The translations under genes and the position numbers were made by a program. The notes under the pieces are model-generated. The model did not search any database and was not told the DNA's origin. It saw only the letters and a program-made list of their open reading frames with translations. This document shows positions 9,720-26,818 of a stretch of DNA of 64,000 nt, in pieces. Source of the stretch: Thermodesulfobacteriota bacterium (GTDB lineage: Bacteria; Desulfobacterota_D; UBA1144; Nemesobacterales; JAJCZQ01); assembly GCA_965203965.1 (NCBI GenBank), contig CBDBDR010000017.1, forward strand, positions 992,001 through 1,056,000, written 5' to 3'. The number at the start of each line of letters is the position of its first letter. The first letter of the stretch is position 1.

Positions 9720-10598
9720 TCAATCCGCTAGCCTGTGCCAACCCGATATTCCTTTTAACAAAAAAATGTCTATATCGTTATTTGATGACAGGTAGTTATA
9801 TAATTCTTTAGCGGGTCTATCTTTCCTAAATACGGCAAAAATACAGGATCCGCTTCCAGACATTATTACCGATTTTGAGTCCAGTGATTGCATTAGCTTT
9901 TTGTATTTCTCCAGAGATGGACAAATACTAAAGGCCGGTCGTTCCAAGTCGTTGAATACAAACAACTCCGATATGGTGTTAGAAAAATTCCGAATCAACT
10001 CTTCAAATTCAGACTTCTCATCACTGTATTTAGAATTTAAGTTGTCCCATTTTTTGTAAACTTCCCAAGTTGAAATTGCAAATCTGGGATAAATAACCAC
10101 GTAATGAAAGACCGGAAAATTTTTAAGAGTTGTAACTTTTTCTCCTATTCCTTTAACAAATGCTGATCTGCATCTTATGAAAAATACCACATCTGCACCA
10201 AGCTCCAAAGATATCTCCATGAGCTCATTTTCATTCAAAATATTCAAAAGGCGGTTTAATCCGACCAATACTGCCGCCGCATTAGAGCTGCCACCGCCAA
10301 GACCAGCCCCTATGGGAATCACCTTATCAATTGAAATGATTATCTTCTTTCTGGTTCCGCTTCTCTTGAGATATAATTGTGCTGCCTTGTAAGCCAGATT
10401 GTCTTTTTCTCTTGGGATTTTTATGCCCCGCAAATTCAGTAGAATCTCATCTCCATTCTCAACTTCTATCTTCACAATATCAAAAAGGTCTACCGGCTGC
10501 ATTATAGATTCTATTTCGTGATAACCGTCGGTTCTTTTTCCTTGCACTTTGAGGGTTAGGTTGACCTTTGCGGGTGATAGTAAGGTTATGGACTTCAT
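9720..10598 (-). CDS. ispE: 4-diphosphocytidyl-2-C-methyl-D-erythritol kinase
   Basis: SPAKVNL, DGYHEI, IPIGAGLGGGSSNAA, MSGSGS. Confidence 0.95.
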   Translation of the reverse strand: MKSITLLSPAKVNLTLKVQGKRTDGYHEIESIMQPVDLFDIVKIEVENGDEILLNLRGIKIPREKDNLAYKAAQLYLKRSGTRKKIIISIDKVIPIGAGLGGGSSNAAAVLVGLNRLLNILNENELMEISLELGADVVFFIRCRSAFVKGIGEKVTTLKNFPVFHYVVIYPRFAISTWEVYKKWDNLNSKYSDEKSEFEELIRNFSNTISELFVFNDLERPAFSICPSLEKYKKLMQSLDSKSVIMSGSGSCIFAVFRKDRPAKELYNYLSSNNDIDIFLLKGISGWHRLAD

Positions 10599-20662: not shown

Positions 20663-20934
20663 CCTCGCACTCCACTTTATTGGATATGGAAAACAATGCC
20701 TACAGAACACACTACCAAGCCCAATGCTGATGTTTGATACTGCTCAAAATTTTACACATTTTTTACTCATTGGACAATTTTCCATTTTGTCTTTCTTTTT
20801 GTTCAACGGATTAATAAGGCATTGCTAACCAAAGATTATCATCGCAGTAGAGTAAATTTTTGTTCACTAACTTGCATGAAATGCCCTTTTACGGACATTC
20901 TCTTGCTTGTATAGTGTATCATTTTCCATTCTTT

Positions 20935-21777
20935 ATGAATAAGGTCCGCAGTTACAGAAAATTTATCAAAATTGAGCATACACTTTTCTCTTTTCCCGTG
21001 GTGCTTGCCGGATCTTTTCTCGCATCCGAAGGTATTCCGCCATTGTATCTGCTTATGCTCATACTAATAGCCGCATCAGGTGCAAGAACTGCTGCAATGG
21101 GACTTAACAGGATAATTGACAGAAAGATCGACTACCTGAATCCGAGAACAAAAAACAGGGAACTGCCCAGTGGAAAAATATCTTTAAATGAAAGCTACAC
21201 GATTACAGGTTTTGGTCTGGGTTTTTATTTTGCAAGTTGTTTTCTTATCTGTGATCTAGTTTTTTACCTCTCTCCAATACCATTGGTCGTTTTTGTTACC
21301 TACCCGTATATGAAGCGATTTACCCCACTGTGTCATTTTGGTGTCGGACTTGCTCTGGCTTTCGCACCACTCGGTGGATGGATTGCTGTAACGTGTTCGC
21401 TAAATGGATTGGGACAGCCATTACTTCTCGCACTGTTCACTTTATTTTGGGTGTCAGGTTTTGACATTATCTATGCCACACTGGACGAGAAATTTGATCT
21501 TAAAAATAATATTTACTCAATAGTTTCAGCTTATGGAAAAGATAAAGCTCTTAAATTTTCAGCCGTTTGTCATGTCCTTGCATTTGTATGTTTAGTTGCG
21601 ATTTATTTAATGTATTTCGCTGGGATAATACCAGCAGTTACTTTGGTTATTACAGGTCTGCTTTTGCTCTTTGAACACAGAAAATCTTCAGATGTTGACT
21701 TGGCATTTTTTAAGATCAATATCCTTATTGGCACGTCTGTGTTCCTTTTTGTCTTGTGTGGTATATATTTAGGTTAA
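20935..21777 (+). CDS. UbiA-family prenyltransferase (MqnP-like, futalosine pathway)
   Basis: IKIEHTLF, ARTAAMGLNRIIDR.ID..NPRT..RELP, GFDIIYA; clustered with ubiX/ubiD/mqnE. Confidence 0.9.
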   Translation: MNKVRSYRKFIKIEHTLFSFPVVLAGSFLASEGIPPLYLLMLILIAASGARTAAMGLNRIIDRKIDYLNPRTKNRELPSGKISLNESYTITGFGLGFYFASCFLICDLVFYLSPIPLVVFVTYPYMKRFTPLCHFGVGLALAFAPLGGWIAVTCSLNGLGQPLLLALFTLFWVSGFDIIYATLDEKFDLKNNIYSIVSAYGKDKALKFSAVCHVLAFVCLVAIYLMYFAGIIPAVTLVITGLLLLFEHRKSSDVDLAFFKINILIGTSVFLFVLCGIYLG

Positions 21778-22329
21778 ATGAGAACGATTATTGGAATTAC
21801 AGGTGCTTCTGGAGTTACATACGGGGTGGATTTTGTGAGAAGATGCCCAGATGATAAATATCTGATTGCCAGCAAATGGGGTAAACACGTTCTCAATGAA
21901 GAACTTGAGTTGAAAGTTGACGAATTGAAACCCTGGGTCAACAAAATATATAGCGACTCTGATCTATCTTCACCTTTTTCATCCGGTAGCAATCATTTTG
22001 ATTCCTTAGTTATCGTTCCATGCACAATATCCACTCTTGCCAAGATAGCAAACGGTATTTCAGATACCCTGATAACAAGAATTGCTCAAGTTGCCCTCAA
22101 GGAAAAAAGACAACTTGTAATAGCCCTTAGGGAAACTCCTTTAAGTTCCATAGCCCTTGAAAACGCACTGAAGCTCTCGCGGGAAGGTGCAGTGATAATG
22201 CCAATAAGCTCACCACACTATTTGAAATCCGAGAAGGTAAGCGATTTAGTGGAAGCCTACGTTGACAAACTACTTGGCATTGTCGGAGTGCAAAACGGCA
22301 GCGGATGGAAAAGCGAGGAGCTTGATTGA
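21778..22329 (+). CDS. ubiX: Flavin prenyltransferase
   Basis: GITGASG, SSGS, PCTISTLAKIA.G, LKEKR.LV...RETP. Confidence 0.93.
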   Translation: MRTIIGITGASGVTYGVDFVRRCPDDKYLIASKWGKHVLNEELELKVDELKPWVNKIYSDSDLSSPFSSGSNHFDSLVIVPCTISTLAKIANGISDTLITRIAQVALKEKRQLVIALRETPLSSIALENALKLSREGAVIMPISSPHYLKSEKVSDLVEAYVDKLLGIVGVQNGSGWKSEELD

Positions 22330-22404
22330 CAAATAAGAAAGAGTCCAAGCCTCTTTATCTCATTGCTTAAATTTCTGAGTTGATAAAAGAGCATTTGCGA
22401 AAGA

Positions 22405-22539
22405 TTGGGAGAAGCAGACCTTCCCGGGATAGATGCGCTCTTTGACCTGATCATTATATCTCCTCTCTTGCTGATCGGTGGCTTTCTTGTTCTTTGTTTA
22501 ATTCTTAACATCATCGGACTTATCTTTGGTATTGGTTAA
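22405..22539 (+). CDS. Possible 44-aa hydrophobic membrane peptide or gene fragment
   Basis: TTG-start frame LGEADLPGIDALFDLIIISPLLLIGGFLVLCLILNIIGLIFGIG*; no clear RBS. Confidence 0.3.
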   Translation: MGEADLPGIDALFDLIIISPLLLIGGFLVLCLILNIIGLIFGIG

Positions 22540-22588
22540 ATACCCTGTATTTCACTACCCCGTTTAACACTGCTCCATCATAGGAAGG

Positions 22589-22641
22589 GACTACCCCGTC
22601 ATTGCCTGATGGCAATGCCACCCCTTCAGGGAAGGGGAATT
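22589..22641 (-). repeat. REP-like double-hairpin repeat, copy 1
   Basis: Minus strand AATTCCCCTTCCCTGAAGGGGTGGCA-ttgccatcaggcaa-TGACGGGGTAGTC; matches 23622 and 55491 copies. Confidence 0.8.
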
Positions 22642-22700
22642 TTAAAGAAAATATACCGCGTTAAACACTGTTAAAACGGCGTTTAAATCGTGTTTAATCA

Positions 22701-22840
22701 CTATTCTCTACCTCTTGGTGAACTCACTGTCTGAACGCTGAACTCCCCAGTTACACCACCGATCGTAACAGTTGCAATAACTATCCGGACAAACTGGCTT
22801 GCCGCCGTTACCCTGACCGCTACGGTCTTCCCACTGGCAA
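22701..22840 (-). pseudogene. C-terminal fragment of a beta-rich surface/phage protein
   Basis: GKTVAVRVTAASQF...ATVTIGGVTGEFSVQT resembles repeat modules of large secreted proteins; no credible start. Confidence 0.35.
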
Positions 22841-22844
22841 AGTA

Positions 22845-23351
22845 GTGTTGCCACACGCCAGCTTTGGCTTTAATCCCTACAAAGCTACTTACCAACCTGA
22901 TTTAAATAAATATAGCTATCCTACAGCGAGGCACTTTGCCACAAATATTGCTTCCAGCCCTAACGCCAAGTTGTTTTTTGAAGGCAGAATTGGAGGAAAA
23001 CTTACGACGGCAGTGGTAGACCCTGCCACCTCAAAAACAATAGGGGCAGAGAACAACACAGTGTGGATACACGCTGACAAAATGAGACATATAAGAAAGA
23101 AACACGAGGACATAACCTCAGCAGACCTTGCAAAAATTCAAGATATAGTTGAGAAAGGAGAAGTTATCACCAATCCCAAAGGTTTTTCTGACTTCCTTCT
23201 TTTTAAAAAAATTCAAAACAAAGAATACACCGTGCCTGTGAGCGTGGTAAAAAATGGTGTGAACGTAAATACGTTCTTTGAAGCGAATCTTGATTACAGA
23301 GAACACATAATTAAAATTGGGGGAAAAGTTATGAAGAAAGAGGAAAATTGA
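22845..23351 (+). CDS. Truncated Mu-like phage head morphogenesis (MuF) protein: linker plus C-terminal BECR-fold (PBECR-like) putative RNase domain
   Basis: PHASFGFNPYKA.YQPDLNKY resembles the end of MuF/gpF; VWI..DKMRHIRKKH.DI..DL..I.DIVE.G ... NTFF resembles PBECR-type nucleases; MuF core absent. Confidence 0.55.
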   Translation: MLPHASFGFNPYKATYQPDLNKYSYPTARHFATNIASSPNAKLFFEGRIGGKLTTAVVDPATSKTIGAENNTVWIHADKMRHIRKKHEDITSADLAKIQDIVEKGEVITNPKGFSDFLLFKKIQNKEYTVPVSVVKNGVNVNTFFEANLDYREHIIKIGGKVMKKEEN

Positions 23352-23483
23352 GGGGTCGCCTGGTTCCCTCTGGGGTGAGCTGAGGACTCGCTTTTCCCTC
23401 TCTGCCTTCTTAGGGGCTACTTCTTCAGTCTCCAGGGTTTACCTAACCGTAACGGTGACCGAGATTTTGCTGCCCACCCTTTG
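23345..23483 (-). ncRNA. Putative ~140-nt structured RNA convergent with the nuclease gene
   Basis: TTGACA(23518-23513)-17-TAGGTT(23495-23490) promoter; GC-rich; GGGUGGGC/GCUCACCC helix, GAGGG/UCCUC and GAGGG/CCCUC hairpins. Confidence 0.6.
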
Positions 23484-23621
23484 AACAAAAACCTACTTAA
23501 TTTCAAGCAATTTGTCAATTCCCCTCTTTAAGCACAACGCATTTGTCTTAAATGGAAATATAGCAAAAAATGCAATAAATACAGTGAGTTAGCAGTTGCA
23601 AATAAGAGTAGATGTTTAAAT

Positions 23622-23669
23622 AATTCCCCTCCTGTGGAGGGGTGGCAGGCAAAGCCTGACGGGGTGGTT
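23622..23669 (+). repeat. REP-like double-hairpin repeat, copy 2
   Basis: AATTCCCCTCCTGTGGAGGGGTGGCA-ggcaaagcc-TGACGGGGTGGTT. Confidence 0.8.
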
Positions 23670-23800
23670 AAAAAAAGGGGAATCCCTGACGCTCCCTTAT
23701 GTGTGCGAGGGGGACTCGGGTAACTCCCCTACATAACTTATTGGGCATCAGGCATGCACTCAGCAATCGCTCCGAGCAGTTTTTGCCGCAACACACTTGA
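23670..23800 (-). ncRNA. Second putative structured RNA with U-tail
   Basis: TTGACG at 23835-23830, weak -10; long stem CCUGAUGC/GCGUCAGG, UUAUGU/ACAUAA, GGGGA/UCCCC; ends in 7 U. Confidence 0.5.
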
Positions 23801-23960
23801 TAACCTATATAACACAAGTGAGAGGTAGTCGTCAAGTAGTCTATTCACCACCCCATAGCAGAACTCACTGGTTGCAATAGGTCAGGATTTTACCATAAAA
23901 TAAAAATGACCCTAAAGTTGCTTATTATTATAATTGTTCTTATCTTTATAGTTTATTACC

Positions 23961-25736
23961 ATGTCTAATTCCAAACCCAATTTTTATGACCTGAGTGGAT
24001 ATATTGACCATCTGGAAAGGATAGGCGATGTCAGTAGGATCAAGGCTGAAGTCGATCCAGTGCTTGAAGTAACCGAAATTGCAGACAGAGTGATAAAGGA
24101 AAACGGACCTGCGTTAATCTTTGAGAACGTAAAAGGATCCAATTTCCCATTGGCAATGAACCTATTTGGCACAGAGGAAAGGGTGGAGTTGGCTTTGGGC
24201 AGAAAACCCGCTGATGTAGGTAATGAACTCGTTGAAATATTTCAGAAACTTAATCCACCTTCAATAAGAGCTTTTTTTTCAATACTTCCTAGCGCTTACA
24301 GCCTGATCAATATGCGTACTAAAACTGTTAAGTCGGGACTTGTGCAATACAATGAATTCAGTCCGGATCTGTCAAGACTCCCAGTAATCAAGTGCTGGCC
24401 CAAAGACGGGGGTAAGTTCATTACACTGGGTTTGGTGCTAACTCAAGATCCTGTATCAAAAAGAAGAAATCTGGGTATTTACAGGATGCAGATCTATGAT
24501 AAAGAAACCACCGGAATGCACTGGCATCCACACAAGGGTGGTGCCGCACACTATCATGAAGCAACAAAACTCAATAAAGACCTTGAAGTAGCCGTGGTGT
24601 TGGGTGGAGATCCTAAAATGATATTCAGTGCAATTGCCCCTCTGCCTGAAGGCATGGACGAACTTGCTTTTGCCAGCTTTCTCAGAAAAAAACCAATACC
24701 TATGGTCAAGGGAAAAACAATATCTCAAACCGTGCCCGCAAATGCGGACATAATAATTGAAGGAATTGTCCCGCAGAACATCGTAAGAGAAGAAGGTCCA
24801 TTTGGCGACCATTTTGGTCACTATTCAATGGAAGCAGATTTTCCCATATTGAAGGTAAAGACAATTACCCATAAACATAATGCAATATACCCAGCAACGG
24901 TTGTCGGCAAACCTCCCAAGGAAGATATATTCCTCGGCATCGCAGCGGGAGAGATGTTCTCTCCACTTATTAGAATCATACAACCTGAAGTAAAAGATAT
25001 GTGGGCTTATCCGGAAGCCGGTTTTCATAACCTACTTGCTGTATCAGTTGATGAACGTTTCCCGAAAAACGGGATAAAAGCCATGCTCGCGCTTTGGGGT
25101 ATAGGTCAACTACTTCTAACAAAGTGTATGATCACCGTCTCAAGTGACGTTGATCCAAGGGATTTCAATGCAGTGCTGAATGAGATAGGGGAAAATTTTG
25201 ACCCCAGAGAAGATTTTCTCCTTATTCCCTGGGCCCCGCTTGATACGCTGGATTTTACAAGTGGAAAACTCAACGTGGGAAGCAAAATGGGCATTAACGC
25301 TACCAGAAAAACCGGGGCAGGAAAGAAAAAATATGCCAAACGAGTTCCCAATCCGAAGGAAAAGCACGAAAATATACTGAACTACAGATTGTTGAACGGT
25401 GGTTTTTTGGTTTTGCAGGTTAGGGATAAACCGAAAGAAATGATTGAAAAGATATTTGAAACTCCTGGTTTTGACAATATCCGTATCATCGCCGTGGTAA
25501 GTGAGGACATTGATCTGAGCAATGATACGGATTTGATCTGGGGTATATTTACCCGTTTTGATCCCTACCTTGACGTTGTTTTTGAACACACTGAACTAAA
25601 AGGTTCGGCAGTGGTTTACAACGGTAGAATGGGAATAGATGCAACAATAAAAAAATGGTATCCTGAGGTGATTGAAATGTCTGAGGATATAAAAAATAAG
25701 GTGATCGAAAAGTGGAACAGCTATTGGAAAATGTAA
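23961..25736 (+). CDS. ubiD: UbiD-family menaquinone biosynthesis decarboxylase (MqnL-like)
   Basis: RNLGIYRMQ, MHWH.HKGGA.H, EGPFGDHFGHYS, VGKPPKED. Confidence 0.93.
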   Translation: MSNSKPNFYDLSGYIDHLERIGDVSRIKAEVDPVLEVTEIADRVIKENGPALIFENVKGSNFPLAMNLFGTEERVELALGRKPADVGNELVEIFQKLNPPSIRAFFSILPSAYSLINMRTKTVKSGLVQYNEFSPDLSRLPVIKCWPKDGGKFITLGLVLTQDPVSKRRNLGIYRMQIYDKETTGMHWHPHKGGAAHYHEATKLNKDLEVAVVLGGDPKMIFSAIAPLPEGMDELAFASFLRKKPIPMVKGKTISQTVPANADIIIEGIVPQNIVREEGPFGDHFGHYSMEADFPILKVKTITHKHNAIYPATVVGKPPKEDIFLGIAAGEMFSPLIRIIQPEVKDMWAYPEAGFHNLLAVSVDERFPKNGIKAMLALWGIGQLLLTKCMITVSSDVDPRDFNAVLNEIGENFDPREDFLLIPWAPLDTLDFTSGKLNVGSKMGINATRKTGAGKKKYAKRVPNPKEKHENILNYRLLNGGFLVLQVRDKPKEMIEKIFETPGFDNIRIIAVVSEDIDLSNDTDLIWGIFTRFDPYLDVVFEHTELKGSAVVYNGRMGIDATIKKWYPEVIEMSEDIKNKVIEKWNSYWKM

Positions 25737-26818
25737 AATACTTCTGCAACGACAAGTCCTTGATACCTATAATGGAAAAAGTGGAAAGCGGTGAACGTAT
25801 CAGTTTTGAAGACGGTATGAAAATAATGGAGTCCGACGATCTTGGCACAATTGGTATGATGGCAGATTACGTTAAAAGAAAAAGGACAGATGATAAAGTG
25901 TATTTTGTGGTCAACAGGCACGTTAATCCTTCAAACATTTGTGCTATATCCTGCCGTTTTTGTGCATTTGGCACTACCAAAAAGTCCGCGAATGCCTATG
26001 AGCTTTCACATGAACAGATACTTTCAATGCTGAATGATGAGATACGTGAAGTTCACATTGTCGGTGGACTTCATCCTGACTGGAAATTTGAACAATACCT
26101 TGATATTGTGAGACTCATAAAAAATGAATATCCCAAAACTCACATAAAAGCCTTTACCGCAGTTGAAATTGACTGGTTCACCGAAATCAGTGGTGCATCA
26201 ATAGAAGACGTGCTTATTAGTTTGAAAGAAAGTGGTATTGATGCCCTAACCGGTGGTGGGGCTGAAATTCTTCATCCTGATATCAGAAAGAAAATCTGTT
26301 CACCTAAAACTGTTGCTACCCGCTGGGAAGAAATTCACAAGGTCGCACACAGCCTTTCAATTCCCTCCAATGCAACTATTCTCTATGGTCACCTGGAAAA
26401 GCCGTTTCATGTCGTAGATCATCTGGAAAGACTTAGAAACATTGAAGATGAATCTCCGGGGTTTTTTGCGTTCATACCTGTTTTGTTCCAACCTGAAAAC
26501 ACGGGACTAAAAAACATCAAACCATTCCCTGCCTCTTACGATATGAAGATCCACGCACTTGCAAGACTCTACCTTGATAATTTTCCCCATATAAAAGCAT
26601 ACTGGATAACTCTGGGTGAAAAAGCCGCGCAGGTAGCTCTTCATTATGGAGCAAGTGACGCGGATGGAACAATTATGAGAGAAAAGATCATCCATGATGC
26701 TGGCGCCCCATCAGAAGTTGGACATAGCAGGGAGTTTATGATCAACTTAATAAAAAATTCCGGCTATACACCTGTTGAAAGAGATGCTCTCTATAATGAA
26801 GTGCAGGTTTATAGTTAG
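25712..26818 (+). CDS. mqnE: Aminofutalosine synthase (radical SAM, CofH-like)
   Basis: NRHVNPSNICAISCRFCAF, EVHIVGGLHP, GGGAEI, RLYLDNFPHIKAYW. Confidence 0.88.
   Translation: MEQLLENVKYFCNDKSLIPIMEKVESGERISFEDGMKIMESDDLGTIGMMADYVKRKRTDDKVYFVVNRHVNPSNICAISCRFCAFGTTKKSANAYELSHEQILSMLNDEIREVHIVGGLHPDWKFEQYLDIVRLIKNEYPKTHIKAFTAVEIDWFTEISGASIEDVLISLKESGIDALTGGGAEILHPDIRKKICSPKTVATRWEEIHKVAHSLSIPSNATILYGHLEKPFHVVDHLERLRNIEDESPGFFAFIPVLFQPENTGLKNIKPFPASYDMKIHALARLYLDNFPHIKAYWITLGEKAAQVALHYGASDADGTIMREKIIHDAGAPSEVGHSREFMINLIKNSGYTPVERDALYNEVQVYS

Follow-up and report, generated by a model that had tools for sequence, protein, structure and literature searches.

A structured small RNA family of Mu-like phage origin joined to the 3' ends of gp30-type MuF/PBECR3 genes

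In type III toxin-antitoxin systems, a ToxN-like (ToxN/AbiQ) toxin is associated with an RNA made of tandem repeats of 34-36 nucleotides (nt), which is encoded upstream in the same direction and co-transcribed with it. Ribonucleases (RNases) of the BECR fold, among them colicins D and E5, CdiA-CT, RelE and PBECR domains, are known to have protein immunity or antitoxin partners, and MuF polymorphic toxins with protein immunity are said to have been described by Zhang and colleagues in 2012. Phage Mu gp30 ends in a PBECR domain that is called inactive, the combination of MuF and PBECR being the native architecture of gp30 orthologues, and the C-terminal domain of MuF is predicted to bind or cut RNA, as stated in the part of Iyer et al. 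(2017; PMC5512222) covered here. An RNA beside MuF or PBECR is not described in the portion of the literature considered, a scope that leaves the supplements of Weinberg 2017 (224 motif diagrams) and of Iyer 2017 outside, and the covered portion of a 2026 preprint on BECR domains names protein partners only (DUF4926). Here we analyze a window of 64,000 nt from a Thermodesulfobacteriota bacterium (assembly GCA_965203965.1, contig CBDBDR010000017.1, positions 992,001 to 1,056,000 of the forward strand; the host genome, labelled G000, comprises 1.99 Mb in 17 contigs, C1-C17). This window holds a decayed cassette of a Mu-like phage, consisting of the 3' part of a truncated MuF gene that is met tail-to-tail by two RNA genes, RNA1 and RNA2. 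RNA1, which abuts the MuF remnant, belongs to a new family of structured small RNAs (sRNAs) with their own promoter and terminator, of Mu-like phage origin and joined to the 3' ends of gp30-type MuF/PBECR3 genes, and this RNA outlives the MuF genes in host chromosomes. The RNA gene is about 140 nt long, has its own sigma-70-type promoter, and ends in a hairpin and U-tract that overlap the last ~9 nt of the protein gene.

The likeness to type III systems (ToxIN, CptIN, TenpIN) lies in an endoribonuclease-type protein with an adjacent pseudoknotted non-coding RNA, in a context of phage-host conflict. Yet, the protein here consists of a BECR/PBECR3 domain in fusion with a phage head protein and is not ToxN-like. 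The RNA is a single ~140-nt unit located downstream, with its own promoter, and 21 of its 22 MuF-abutting copies are convergent; the RNA/PBECR pair falls outside the type III toxin-antitoxin families. When compared to the MuF polymorphic toxins with protein immunity, as presented in the part of Jamet et al. (2017) covered here, the locus shares a conserved N-terminal MuF part, a variable C-terminus, the existence of orphan C-terminal cassettes, and an element after the toxin domain that changes together with this domain, but the genes here are gp30-sized (~400 amino acids, aa), carry a native MuF-C/PBECR end, and are met by an RNA gene on the opposite strand instead of being followed by a short open reading frame (ORF). 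Phage Mu gp30 has the same architecture and the same place in the portal-F-G head module; in contrast, the Mu domain is described as inactive while the histidine is invariant here, and no RNA gene between F and G is described in the covered part of the source (Iyer et al., 2017, PMC5512222).

The protein-coding part of the cassette is a 5'-truncated copy of a MuF+PBECR3 gene (22806-23351, plus strand), the DNA similarity to a full-length paralogue beginning at 22806, and corresponds to the 3' 40% of a gp30-type gene with PBECR3 as its C-terminal domain. The ORF that it contains (22845-23351, plus strand; 168 aa, GTG start) is 87.5% identical over 176 aa to residues 231-406 of a 406-aa paralogue. 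A full-length 406-aa copy with both Phage_Mu_F and PBECR3 is encoded at C17:1418554-1419774, and four further related loci are found in the host genome, one of them another 406-aa gene whose N-terminal part is near-identical to that of the first and whose C-terminal domain is different. PBECR3 (PF18812) is the sole family above the cut-off in the window ORF (32.8 bits for a curated cut-off of 30, residues 63-148), the paralogues scoring below it (26.4, 22, 17.1, and 16.3 bits). This bears out the original prediction, made from the nucleotide sequence without database searches, that the ORF is a MuF-derived BECR-type domain. That the ORF was seen to lack the MuF core and a clear start context is likewise accounted for: the Phage_Mu_F (PF04233) core, present in full-length paralogues and phage homologues, has no match in the window ORF, and neither a start nor a core lies upstream, because the gene is truncated at its 5' end.

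According to the covered part of Iyer et al. (2017; PMC5512222), active PBECR domains have a His that is conserved in their N-terminal helix as well as a Ser/Thr close to the C-terminus, and the window domain shows this catalytic pattern. Eleven C-terminal domains sharing 24-87% identity with the window ORF were aligned; His87 (in ...RKKH...) is invariant among them, and most retain the C-terminal Ser/Thr, as T or S of the ...NTFF... strand. As to the nuclease fold that had been proposed, the AlphaFold2 (AF2) model of the ORF (predicted local distance difference test score, pLDDT, 87.8) retrieved nothing from the PDB at E <= 0.001 with Foldseek, and the best matches found with VIA-align were of the BECR RNase kind (including also colicin E5), all with Z scores below 8 and thus under the level that this program calls safe (a CdiA-CT tRNase, 6.5; BrnT, 6.4; then RelE-type toxins, and colicin D, 4.6). 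Judged by the invariant His and the kind of these fold matches, the PBECR domain looks like an active RNase.

RNA1 (23339-23492, minus strand, limits set by the covariance model; 167.7 bits with covariance model R1 and 121.5 bits with model R2) likely starts near 23483 and ends in a U-tract near 23344. Its promoter (23490-23518, minus strand) comprises a -35 hexamer TTGACA (23518-23513), a 17-nt spacer and a -10 hexamer TAGGTT (23495-23490). All parts of the RNA given here lie on this same minus strand. The closing helix P1 is formed by a 5' arm, GGGUGGGC (23472-23479), and a 3' arm, GCUCACCC (23373-23380), with one G-U pair, and 9 of its 10 pairs change on both sides. After a conserved junction, GCAAAAU, comes the 5' arm of P2, CUCG (23460-23463), whose partner CGAG (23387-23390) is located within the P4 loop; all four P2 pairs show two-sided changes (96.3% paired). 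The P3 stem, weak in the window copy (3 pairs, 23443-23441 with 23429-23427), encloses the L3 loop with the motif CCUGG (23432-23436), one half of a loop-loop pseudoknot indicated by covariation. The P4 hairpin (23382-23400) pairs GAGG (23400-23397) with CCUC (23385-23382) and crosses P2. Finally, the terminal hairpin (23344-23370), which overlaps the ORF stop codon, pairs GAGGG (23370-23366) with CCCUC (23354-23350), 4 of 5 pairs showing two-sided changes; it has an 11-nt loop containing CCAGG (23363-23359), and UUUU follows at 23347-23344. The ORF, the promoter hexamers, the P1 arms, the terminal hairpin, and the CCUGG/CCAGG motifs are all present in the sequence where the original prediction had placed them. 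The fold is made up of a closing P1, an A-rich junction, P2, P3, the crossing P2/P4, and a terminal hairpin, with pairing between the loops of this hairpin and of P3.

Considered by itself, the copy in the window carries no thermodynamic signal, its minimum free energy (-42.7 kcal/mol) being no better than chance when compared to shuffled sequences (-43.3 +/- 4.0, z = +0.14), and it is the comparison of homologues that supports the structure. Compensatory changes in P1 and the terminal hairpin were evident from as few as seven sequences. In the 34-copy R1 alignment, which was fitted to P1, P2, and the terminal hairpin and not to P3 or the loop-loop helix, 92.3% of 930 cells hold standard pairs and 24 of 28 pairs change on both sides; none of 500 shuffles reaches any of the five measures used, and controls in which the partners were slid by 1-3 columns are paired at 27-50% only. 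A structured RNA with P1 and a terminal hairpin, as originally drawn from a single copy, is thus well established by covariation in 34 homologues. A plain MAFFT alignment of 21 copies (A8) yields six helices with 94.4% of cells paired: P1 (94.7%), P2 (91.7%), P3 (90.5%), P4 (99.2%, with two-sided changes at 4 of 6 pairs), the terminal hairpin (92.4%), and the loop-loop helix (95.2%). On four measures out of five, no shuffle among 500 attains the observed values; on the fifth, the count of further pair types, the alignment is no better than shuffles (168/500). In this alignment, P2 (columns 31-34 with 94-97) and P4 (81-86 with 99-104) cross each other, and therefore represent either a pseudoknot or two alternative states. 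The loop-loop pairing CCUGG/CCAGG becomes CCUGA/UCAGG in several lineages, including RNA2, and CUUGG/CCAAG in one, and this pseudoknot, initially proposed as a possible pairing, holds with ~95% of cells paired and compensatory changes, though it is absent from the covariance model. Several unpaired stretches are highly conserved as well (GCAAAAUCU, CUGAGG, and AAGUUCCGUAG).

Cells with G-U or U-G outnumber those with A-C or C-A by 96 to 32 (66 to 32 without one constant G-U pair), a count that is somewhat biased since the alignment was fitted on the minus strand. A TTGAYN-N15-19-TAnnnT site was detected by script directly upstream of the RNA in 27 of 34 copies, and three more sites were read by eye (L012, RNA2, L081), as well as a -10-only site in L082; the hexamers are conserved and the spacers vary among copies. 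The minus-strand promoter expected downstream of homologues is thus a conserved feature of the family. At the window copy, its description as 'near-consensus' sigma70 is accurate for the -35 hexamer TTGACA, but not for the -10, which matches at only 3 of 6 positions. Because of this -10 and of loops exceeding 8 nt, a generic promoter/terminator scan listed neither the promoter nor the terminator of RNA1; the promoter-like site of RNA2 is likewise unlisted. In several genomes the terminator hairpin of the upstream unit lies directly before the -35, and the 3' hairpin and U-run are retained even at copies whose protein gene is lost. Exact metatranscriptome contigs from four runs of one study cover RNA1 (23319-23470, 153 nt, one run) and the RNA2 locus (23670-23858, 23670-23862, and 23709-23895, in three runs). 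As these contigs break off at repeat boundaries, their ends are not read as RNA ends, and the fact that no such contigs cover the ORF is not to be read as silence.

The ORF end together with the RNA block is found in three copies in the host genome at 87-89% identity, and also in another family of the order. Model R1 has matches in 21 of 101 genomes of the order. Across the phylum, model R2, built on 34 copies, matches 49 times, in 24 of the 120 genomes; 12 of these matches, RNA2 among them, are in the host genome. By family and with the host genome set aside, genomes with R2 matches amount to 18 of 37 in f7, 5 of 33 in f8, and none of the four other genomes in f1, and R2 found none in families f2 (15 genomes), f3 (2), f4 (1), f5 (6), f6 (2), and f9 (19). 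Two viral contigs of IMG/VR found by a pattern scan score 122.7 and 117.3 bits with the model. The known range is narrow, three families of one order and two viral contigs, with metagenomes covered by a single pattern that fits one RNA subtype. A first pattern scan had returned 1 viral and 37 metagenome matches, discarded as chance matches (hairpin arms in 0 of 38), and a further scan returned five viral matches, none of which fits the covariance model. The search for loci related to the ORF among genome contigs retrieved one locus. No blastn match to the RNA and no tblastn match to the ORF were found in GenBank phages, Rfam 15 gave no match at E <= 1 on either strand of 21500-25000, a region that includes both RNA genes, and a scan for tRNAs and tmRNAs found nothing in the region.

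The phage setting of the RNA is seen in the viral contig L103 and in genome G056, where terminase, a Mu-type portal, MuF, the RNA in antisense, and a Mu G-type virion morphogenesis gene follow each other. Since it lies antisense between MuF and G in phages, the RNA belongs to Mu-like phages, whose F-G spacer it fills. In L104, an IMG/VR contig of 12.4 kb, MuF, RNA, and G lie beside a LexA-like repressor and a Mu-type transposase with no portal between; this contig may represent a rearranged or minimal Mu-like element. The context was analyzed for 51 copies (49 genome matches and 2 viral ones), MuF being searched with six tblastn queries. Twenty-one copies are convergent with the 3' end of a MuF/PBECR homologue (gap of -20 to +69 nt, mostly -9), so that the RNA block is indeed conserved beside homologues, as had been anticipated; one copy, in G089, is co-directional (32 nt past the stop, with its own promoter and no U-tract), four lie beside another RNA copy or at <=1.5 kb from MuF, and 25 are solo, with no MuF detected by the six queries. 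This last number is an upper bound, since tblastn missed an 82-aa PBECR-like ORF in L068. By eye, this ORF (L068 segment 1629-1877, minus strand; G060:C1, ~1.7639 Mb) is PBECR-like (...LKHYQDV..., Lys-rich tail), is convergent on the RNA copy, and overlaps the RNA 3' end.

Considered from the side of the protein, Phage_Mu_F has 14 matches in the 120 genomes; nine of them adjoin the RNA, most in open frames of ~400-450 aa, and the five matches without RNA are in open frames of 309, 334, 565, 576, and 1557 aa. Every examined MuF of the gp30+PBECR3 type has the RNA, the linkage is held across paralogues that are only 25-37% identical, and all five MuF loci of the host genome, as well as the orphan cassette, carry it. 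One of these loci exists in two versions: C13:1-2900 is a second version of the C17:462800-466300 locus (~464 kb), with the same flanking genes, a window-type PBECR C-terminal domain and a different RNA type, so that domain and RNA differ together. The MuF gene of the C13 version is broken by a stop and frame changes, and the pair of versions looks like a population-level cassette exchange. Right behind the MuF-RNA in both (C17:462995-463870 and C13:33-908) are a 168-aa ORF, Panacea/DUF4065-like, and a 122-aa ORF with a hydrophobic C-terminus (both by eye), which may constitute a separate toxin-antitoxin pair. The solo copies, for their part, occur as a dispersed cassette, ~300-350 nt long, whose flanks are unrelated. 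In L075, L076, L090, and L091 (columns ~45-395 of alignment A10, a cassette of ~350 nt), a 12-nt inverted repeat (CAAAAATGGTTT / AAACCATTTTTG) brackets promoter and RNA, and could be protein-binding sites or remains of mobile-element ends. Five genomes with one solo RNA each have no Phage_Mu_F match at E <= 0.001.

Based on these sequence comparisons, we tentatively propose that the RNA is a trans-acting inhibitor or immunity factor of the PBECR RNase, a possibility that we favor over the others considered without regarding it as probable. The RNA would bind the PBECR domain in trans as a protein partner and would keep the RNase silent in the cell that makes it ('immunity RNA'), working like a type III antitoxin outside of the type III families. 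Made constitutively from prophages and their remnants, it would also blunt the same RNase when brought in with the virion of a related phage. Several observations are in line with this proposal: the partner is a probable RNase, domain and RNA have been exchanged together at the C13/C17 locus, and the complexity of the fold goes far beyond what an antisense RNA requires. An action in trans rather than in cis is further supported by the co-directional copy with its own promoter, by the solo copies in genomes without a MuF match, and by the conserved junction and loop sequences.

A number of points weigh against an immunity RNA. A Phage_Mu_F match (E <= 1e-5) is present in only 6 of the 24 RNA-bearing genomes; with 18 of 24 genomes devoid of it and about half of the copies solo, most copies are therefore kept by something other than a resident toxin, and some solo copies are decaying (L081, L083). 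The link between RNA and PBECR could be positional only, the RNA filling the F-G intergenic space. For phage Mu itself, the covered part of Iyer et al. (2017; PMC5512222) calls the PBECR domain inactive. Moreover, the anatomy is unlike that of known RNA antitoxins, the binding and neutralization of the RNase by the RNA are predicted, and the metatranscriptome contigs, which stem from one study and carry no strand, are a weak hint. If the RNA does act as the partner of a BECR RNase, RNA antitoxicity would extend beyond the ToxN-like type III systems, to toxins carried by virions.

Convergent antisense RNAs are known from lambda OOP and from type I antitoxins that overlap 3' ends; in type I toxin-antitoxin systems, a small membrane peptide serves as the toxin, and its mRNA is overlapped by the antisense RNA. 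The RNA described here might similarly be an antisense regulator of the phage late operon, which we consider a less likely explanation, but one to be taken seriously. By pairing with the late transcript at its F-G junction, either in cis or to counter an incoming relative, it would lead to cleavage and silence leaky expression of F (the RNase) or G in lysogens. As in lambda OOP, a short RNA with its own promoter converges on a phage gene and overlaps its 3' end; it fills the F-G spacer, the promoter is of a constitutive type, in L103 it is located ~40 nt from the start of G, and the convergent arrangement is nearly general among the MuF-abutting copies (21/22). Yet, a covarying fold with two pseudoknots and conserved unpaired stretches would be superfluous for plain antisense action, the coding overlap is only ~9 nt, one copy is co-directional, and the solo copies have no complementary sequence at their own locus. 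It is in this complex conserved fold, the short overlap, and the existence of co-directional and solo copies that the RNA differs from OOP and its like. With type I systems it shares the geometry of the overlap, but the protein here is a 400-aa head protein with an RNase-fold domain and not a small membrane peptide.

Another explanation, which we hold to be unlikely, is that of a stand-alone phage 'moron' sRNA or a selfish cassette unrelated to MuF, serving in host regulation, ligand binding, or catalysis, for which the F-G spacer would be the usual landing place. This would account for the 25 solo copies out of 51, for their dispersal as a ~300-350-nt cassette in unrelated flanks with a 12-nt inverted repeat around, and for the fact that each copy is its own transcription unit. 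However, diverged paralogues share a fixed junction between RNA and gene end, no examined MuF of the gp30+PBECR3 type is without the RNA, and no Rfam ribozyme or riboswitch matches it.

RNAs with a structural role in phages are known as well: the pRNA of phi29 oligomerizes through complementary loops. Like pRNA, the RNA found here is a phage RNA (in the range of ~120-170 nt) tied to the portal region and with two covarying complementary loops, but it has no sequence or Rfam similarity to pRNA and persists outside phages. That it is a structural or assembly cofactor of the virion, docking on an RNA-binding PBECR domain at the portal, possibly oligomerizing via its two loops, and perhaps packaged, seems improbable to us. 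Its place inside the head-morphogenesis module TerL-portal-MuF-RNA-G fits such a role, the two covarying 5-nt loops could pair between molecules, and RNA binding is predicted for the MuF C-terminal domain in the covered part of Iyer et al. (2017; PMC5512222). The persistence of the RNA in MuF-free genomes, and beside MuF genes without other phage genes nearby, speaks against it, as do its orientation antisense to the late operon and its housekeeping-type promoter. A combination of assembly cofactor and immunity RNA is conceivable, with still slightly lower odds: the RNA would be a stoichiometric partner of MuF that docks on PBECR at the portal, links copies through its loops, and travels in the virion with the masked RNase. 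One RNA would then be both assembly cofactor and safety catch for an injected RNase, and RNA made from prophage remnants would amount to RNA-based superinfection immunity. In that case, phages would have a second structural RNA besides phi29 pRNA, and BECR-fold toxins a first immunity factor made of RNA.

The idea that there is no RNA, and that the block is a plus-strand immunity ORF ('MRGRLVPSG...', 64-87 aa) or a DNA-level element, can hardly be maintained: the frame is open in two other host-genome copies (2 of 3 local copies), where it overlaps the MuF stop by 4 nt, but in the window a stop closes it after 11 codons, it does not stay in register among homologues and genomes, and it is therefore not coding, while only the hairpin part is conserved, the pair changes are compensatory and not synonymous, and the G-U excess indicates the other strand. 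The small immunity ORF was accordingly rejected as a candidate and, as first noted, no conserved small frame follows the toxin domain on the same strand. Whatever its function, the RNA represents an undescribed class, ~140 nt in length, that has a double pseudoknot and covaries with unusual clarity, directly amenable to testing through its defined promoter, terminator, and protein neighbor, and its phage and chromosomal copies. For the question of what the C-terminal domain of Mu F does, RNA binding or cutting being predicted in the covered part of Iyer et al. (2017; PMC5512222), it provides a specific candidate RNA encoded alongside.

RNA2 (23666-23810, minus strand) is a more divergent second copy of the family (R1, 25.6 bits, E 1.4e-5; R2, 78.4 bits, E 2.7e-18), with CCUGA in L3 (23752-23748), UCAGG in the terminal loop (23689-23685), seven U at 23676-23670, and a promoter-like site read by eye (23806-23835, minus strand; TTGACG 23835-23830, an 18-nt spacer, and TATATA 23811-23806). 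Between RNA1 and RNA2 lies a palindromic repeat resembling repetitive extragenic palindromes (REP-like; 23622-23680, no strand), which is multicopy in the genome. GC-rich REP-like palindromes of this kind (core ...CCCCTCC...GGAGGGG...), found at 22583-22643 and 23622-23680, flank the cassette pieces, and more than 10 sites exist in contig C17. A block of 180 nt (23499-23678), with the RNA1 promoter at its end, is 95-98% identical at three other sites (C17:1417838-1418017, 1123809-1123998, and 462824-462996). One copy of this block faces an ORF pair that resembles a DNA methylase and partner (by eye), and another drives the second RNA of the full-length MuF locus. From these sequences, the window RNA1 seems to have gained the upstream 180-nt block by recombination at a shared promoter core.

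The neighbors of the cassette (20860-22329 and 23961-26818) are, by eye, a UbiA-type prenyltransferase, UbiX, UbiD, and a radical-SAM menaquinone (futalosine-route) enzyme, and the cassette was apparently inserted between putative ubiX and ubiD, gene names being likewise assigned by eye. At another locus (L096:6699-8217 and 9904-9954; G042:C1, ~1.300-1.304 Mb), a 1.7-kb Mu-like fragment with the 3' part of MuF, the RNA, and G is found at the end of an array of clustered regularly interspaced short palindromic repeats (CRISPR), which contains ~21 repeats and lies next to cas4-cas1. The last repeat of this array is truncated and joined to the MuF fragment, and G is followed by a partial repeat, the fragment being placed like an oversized spacer.

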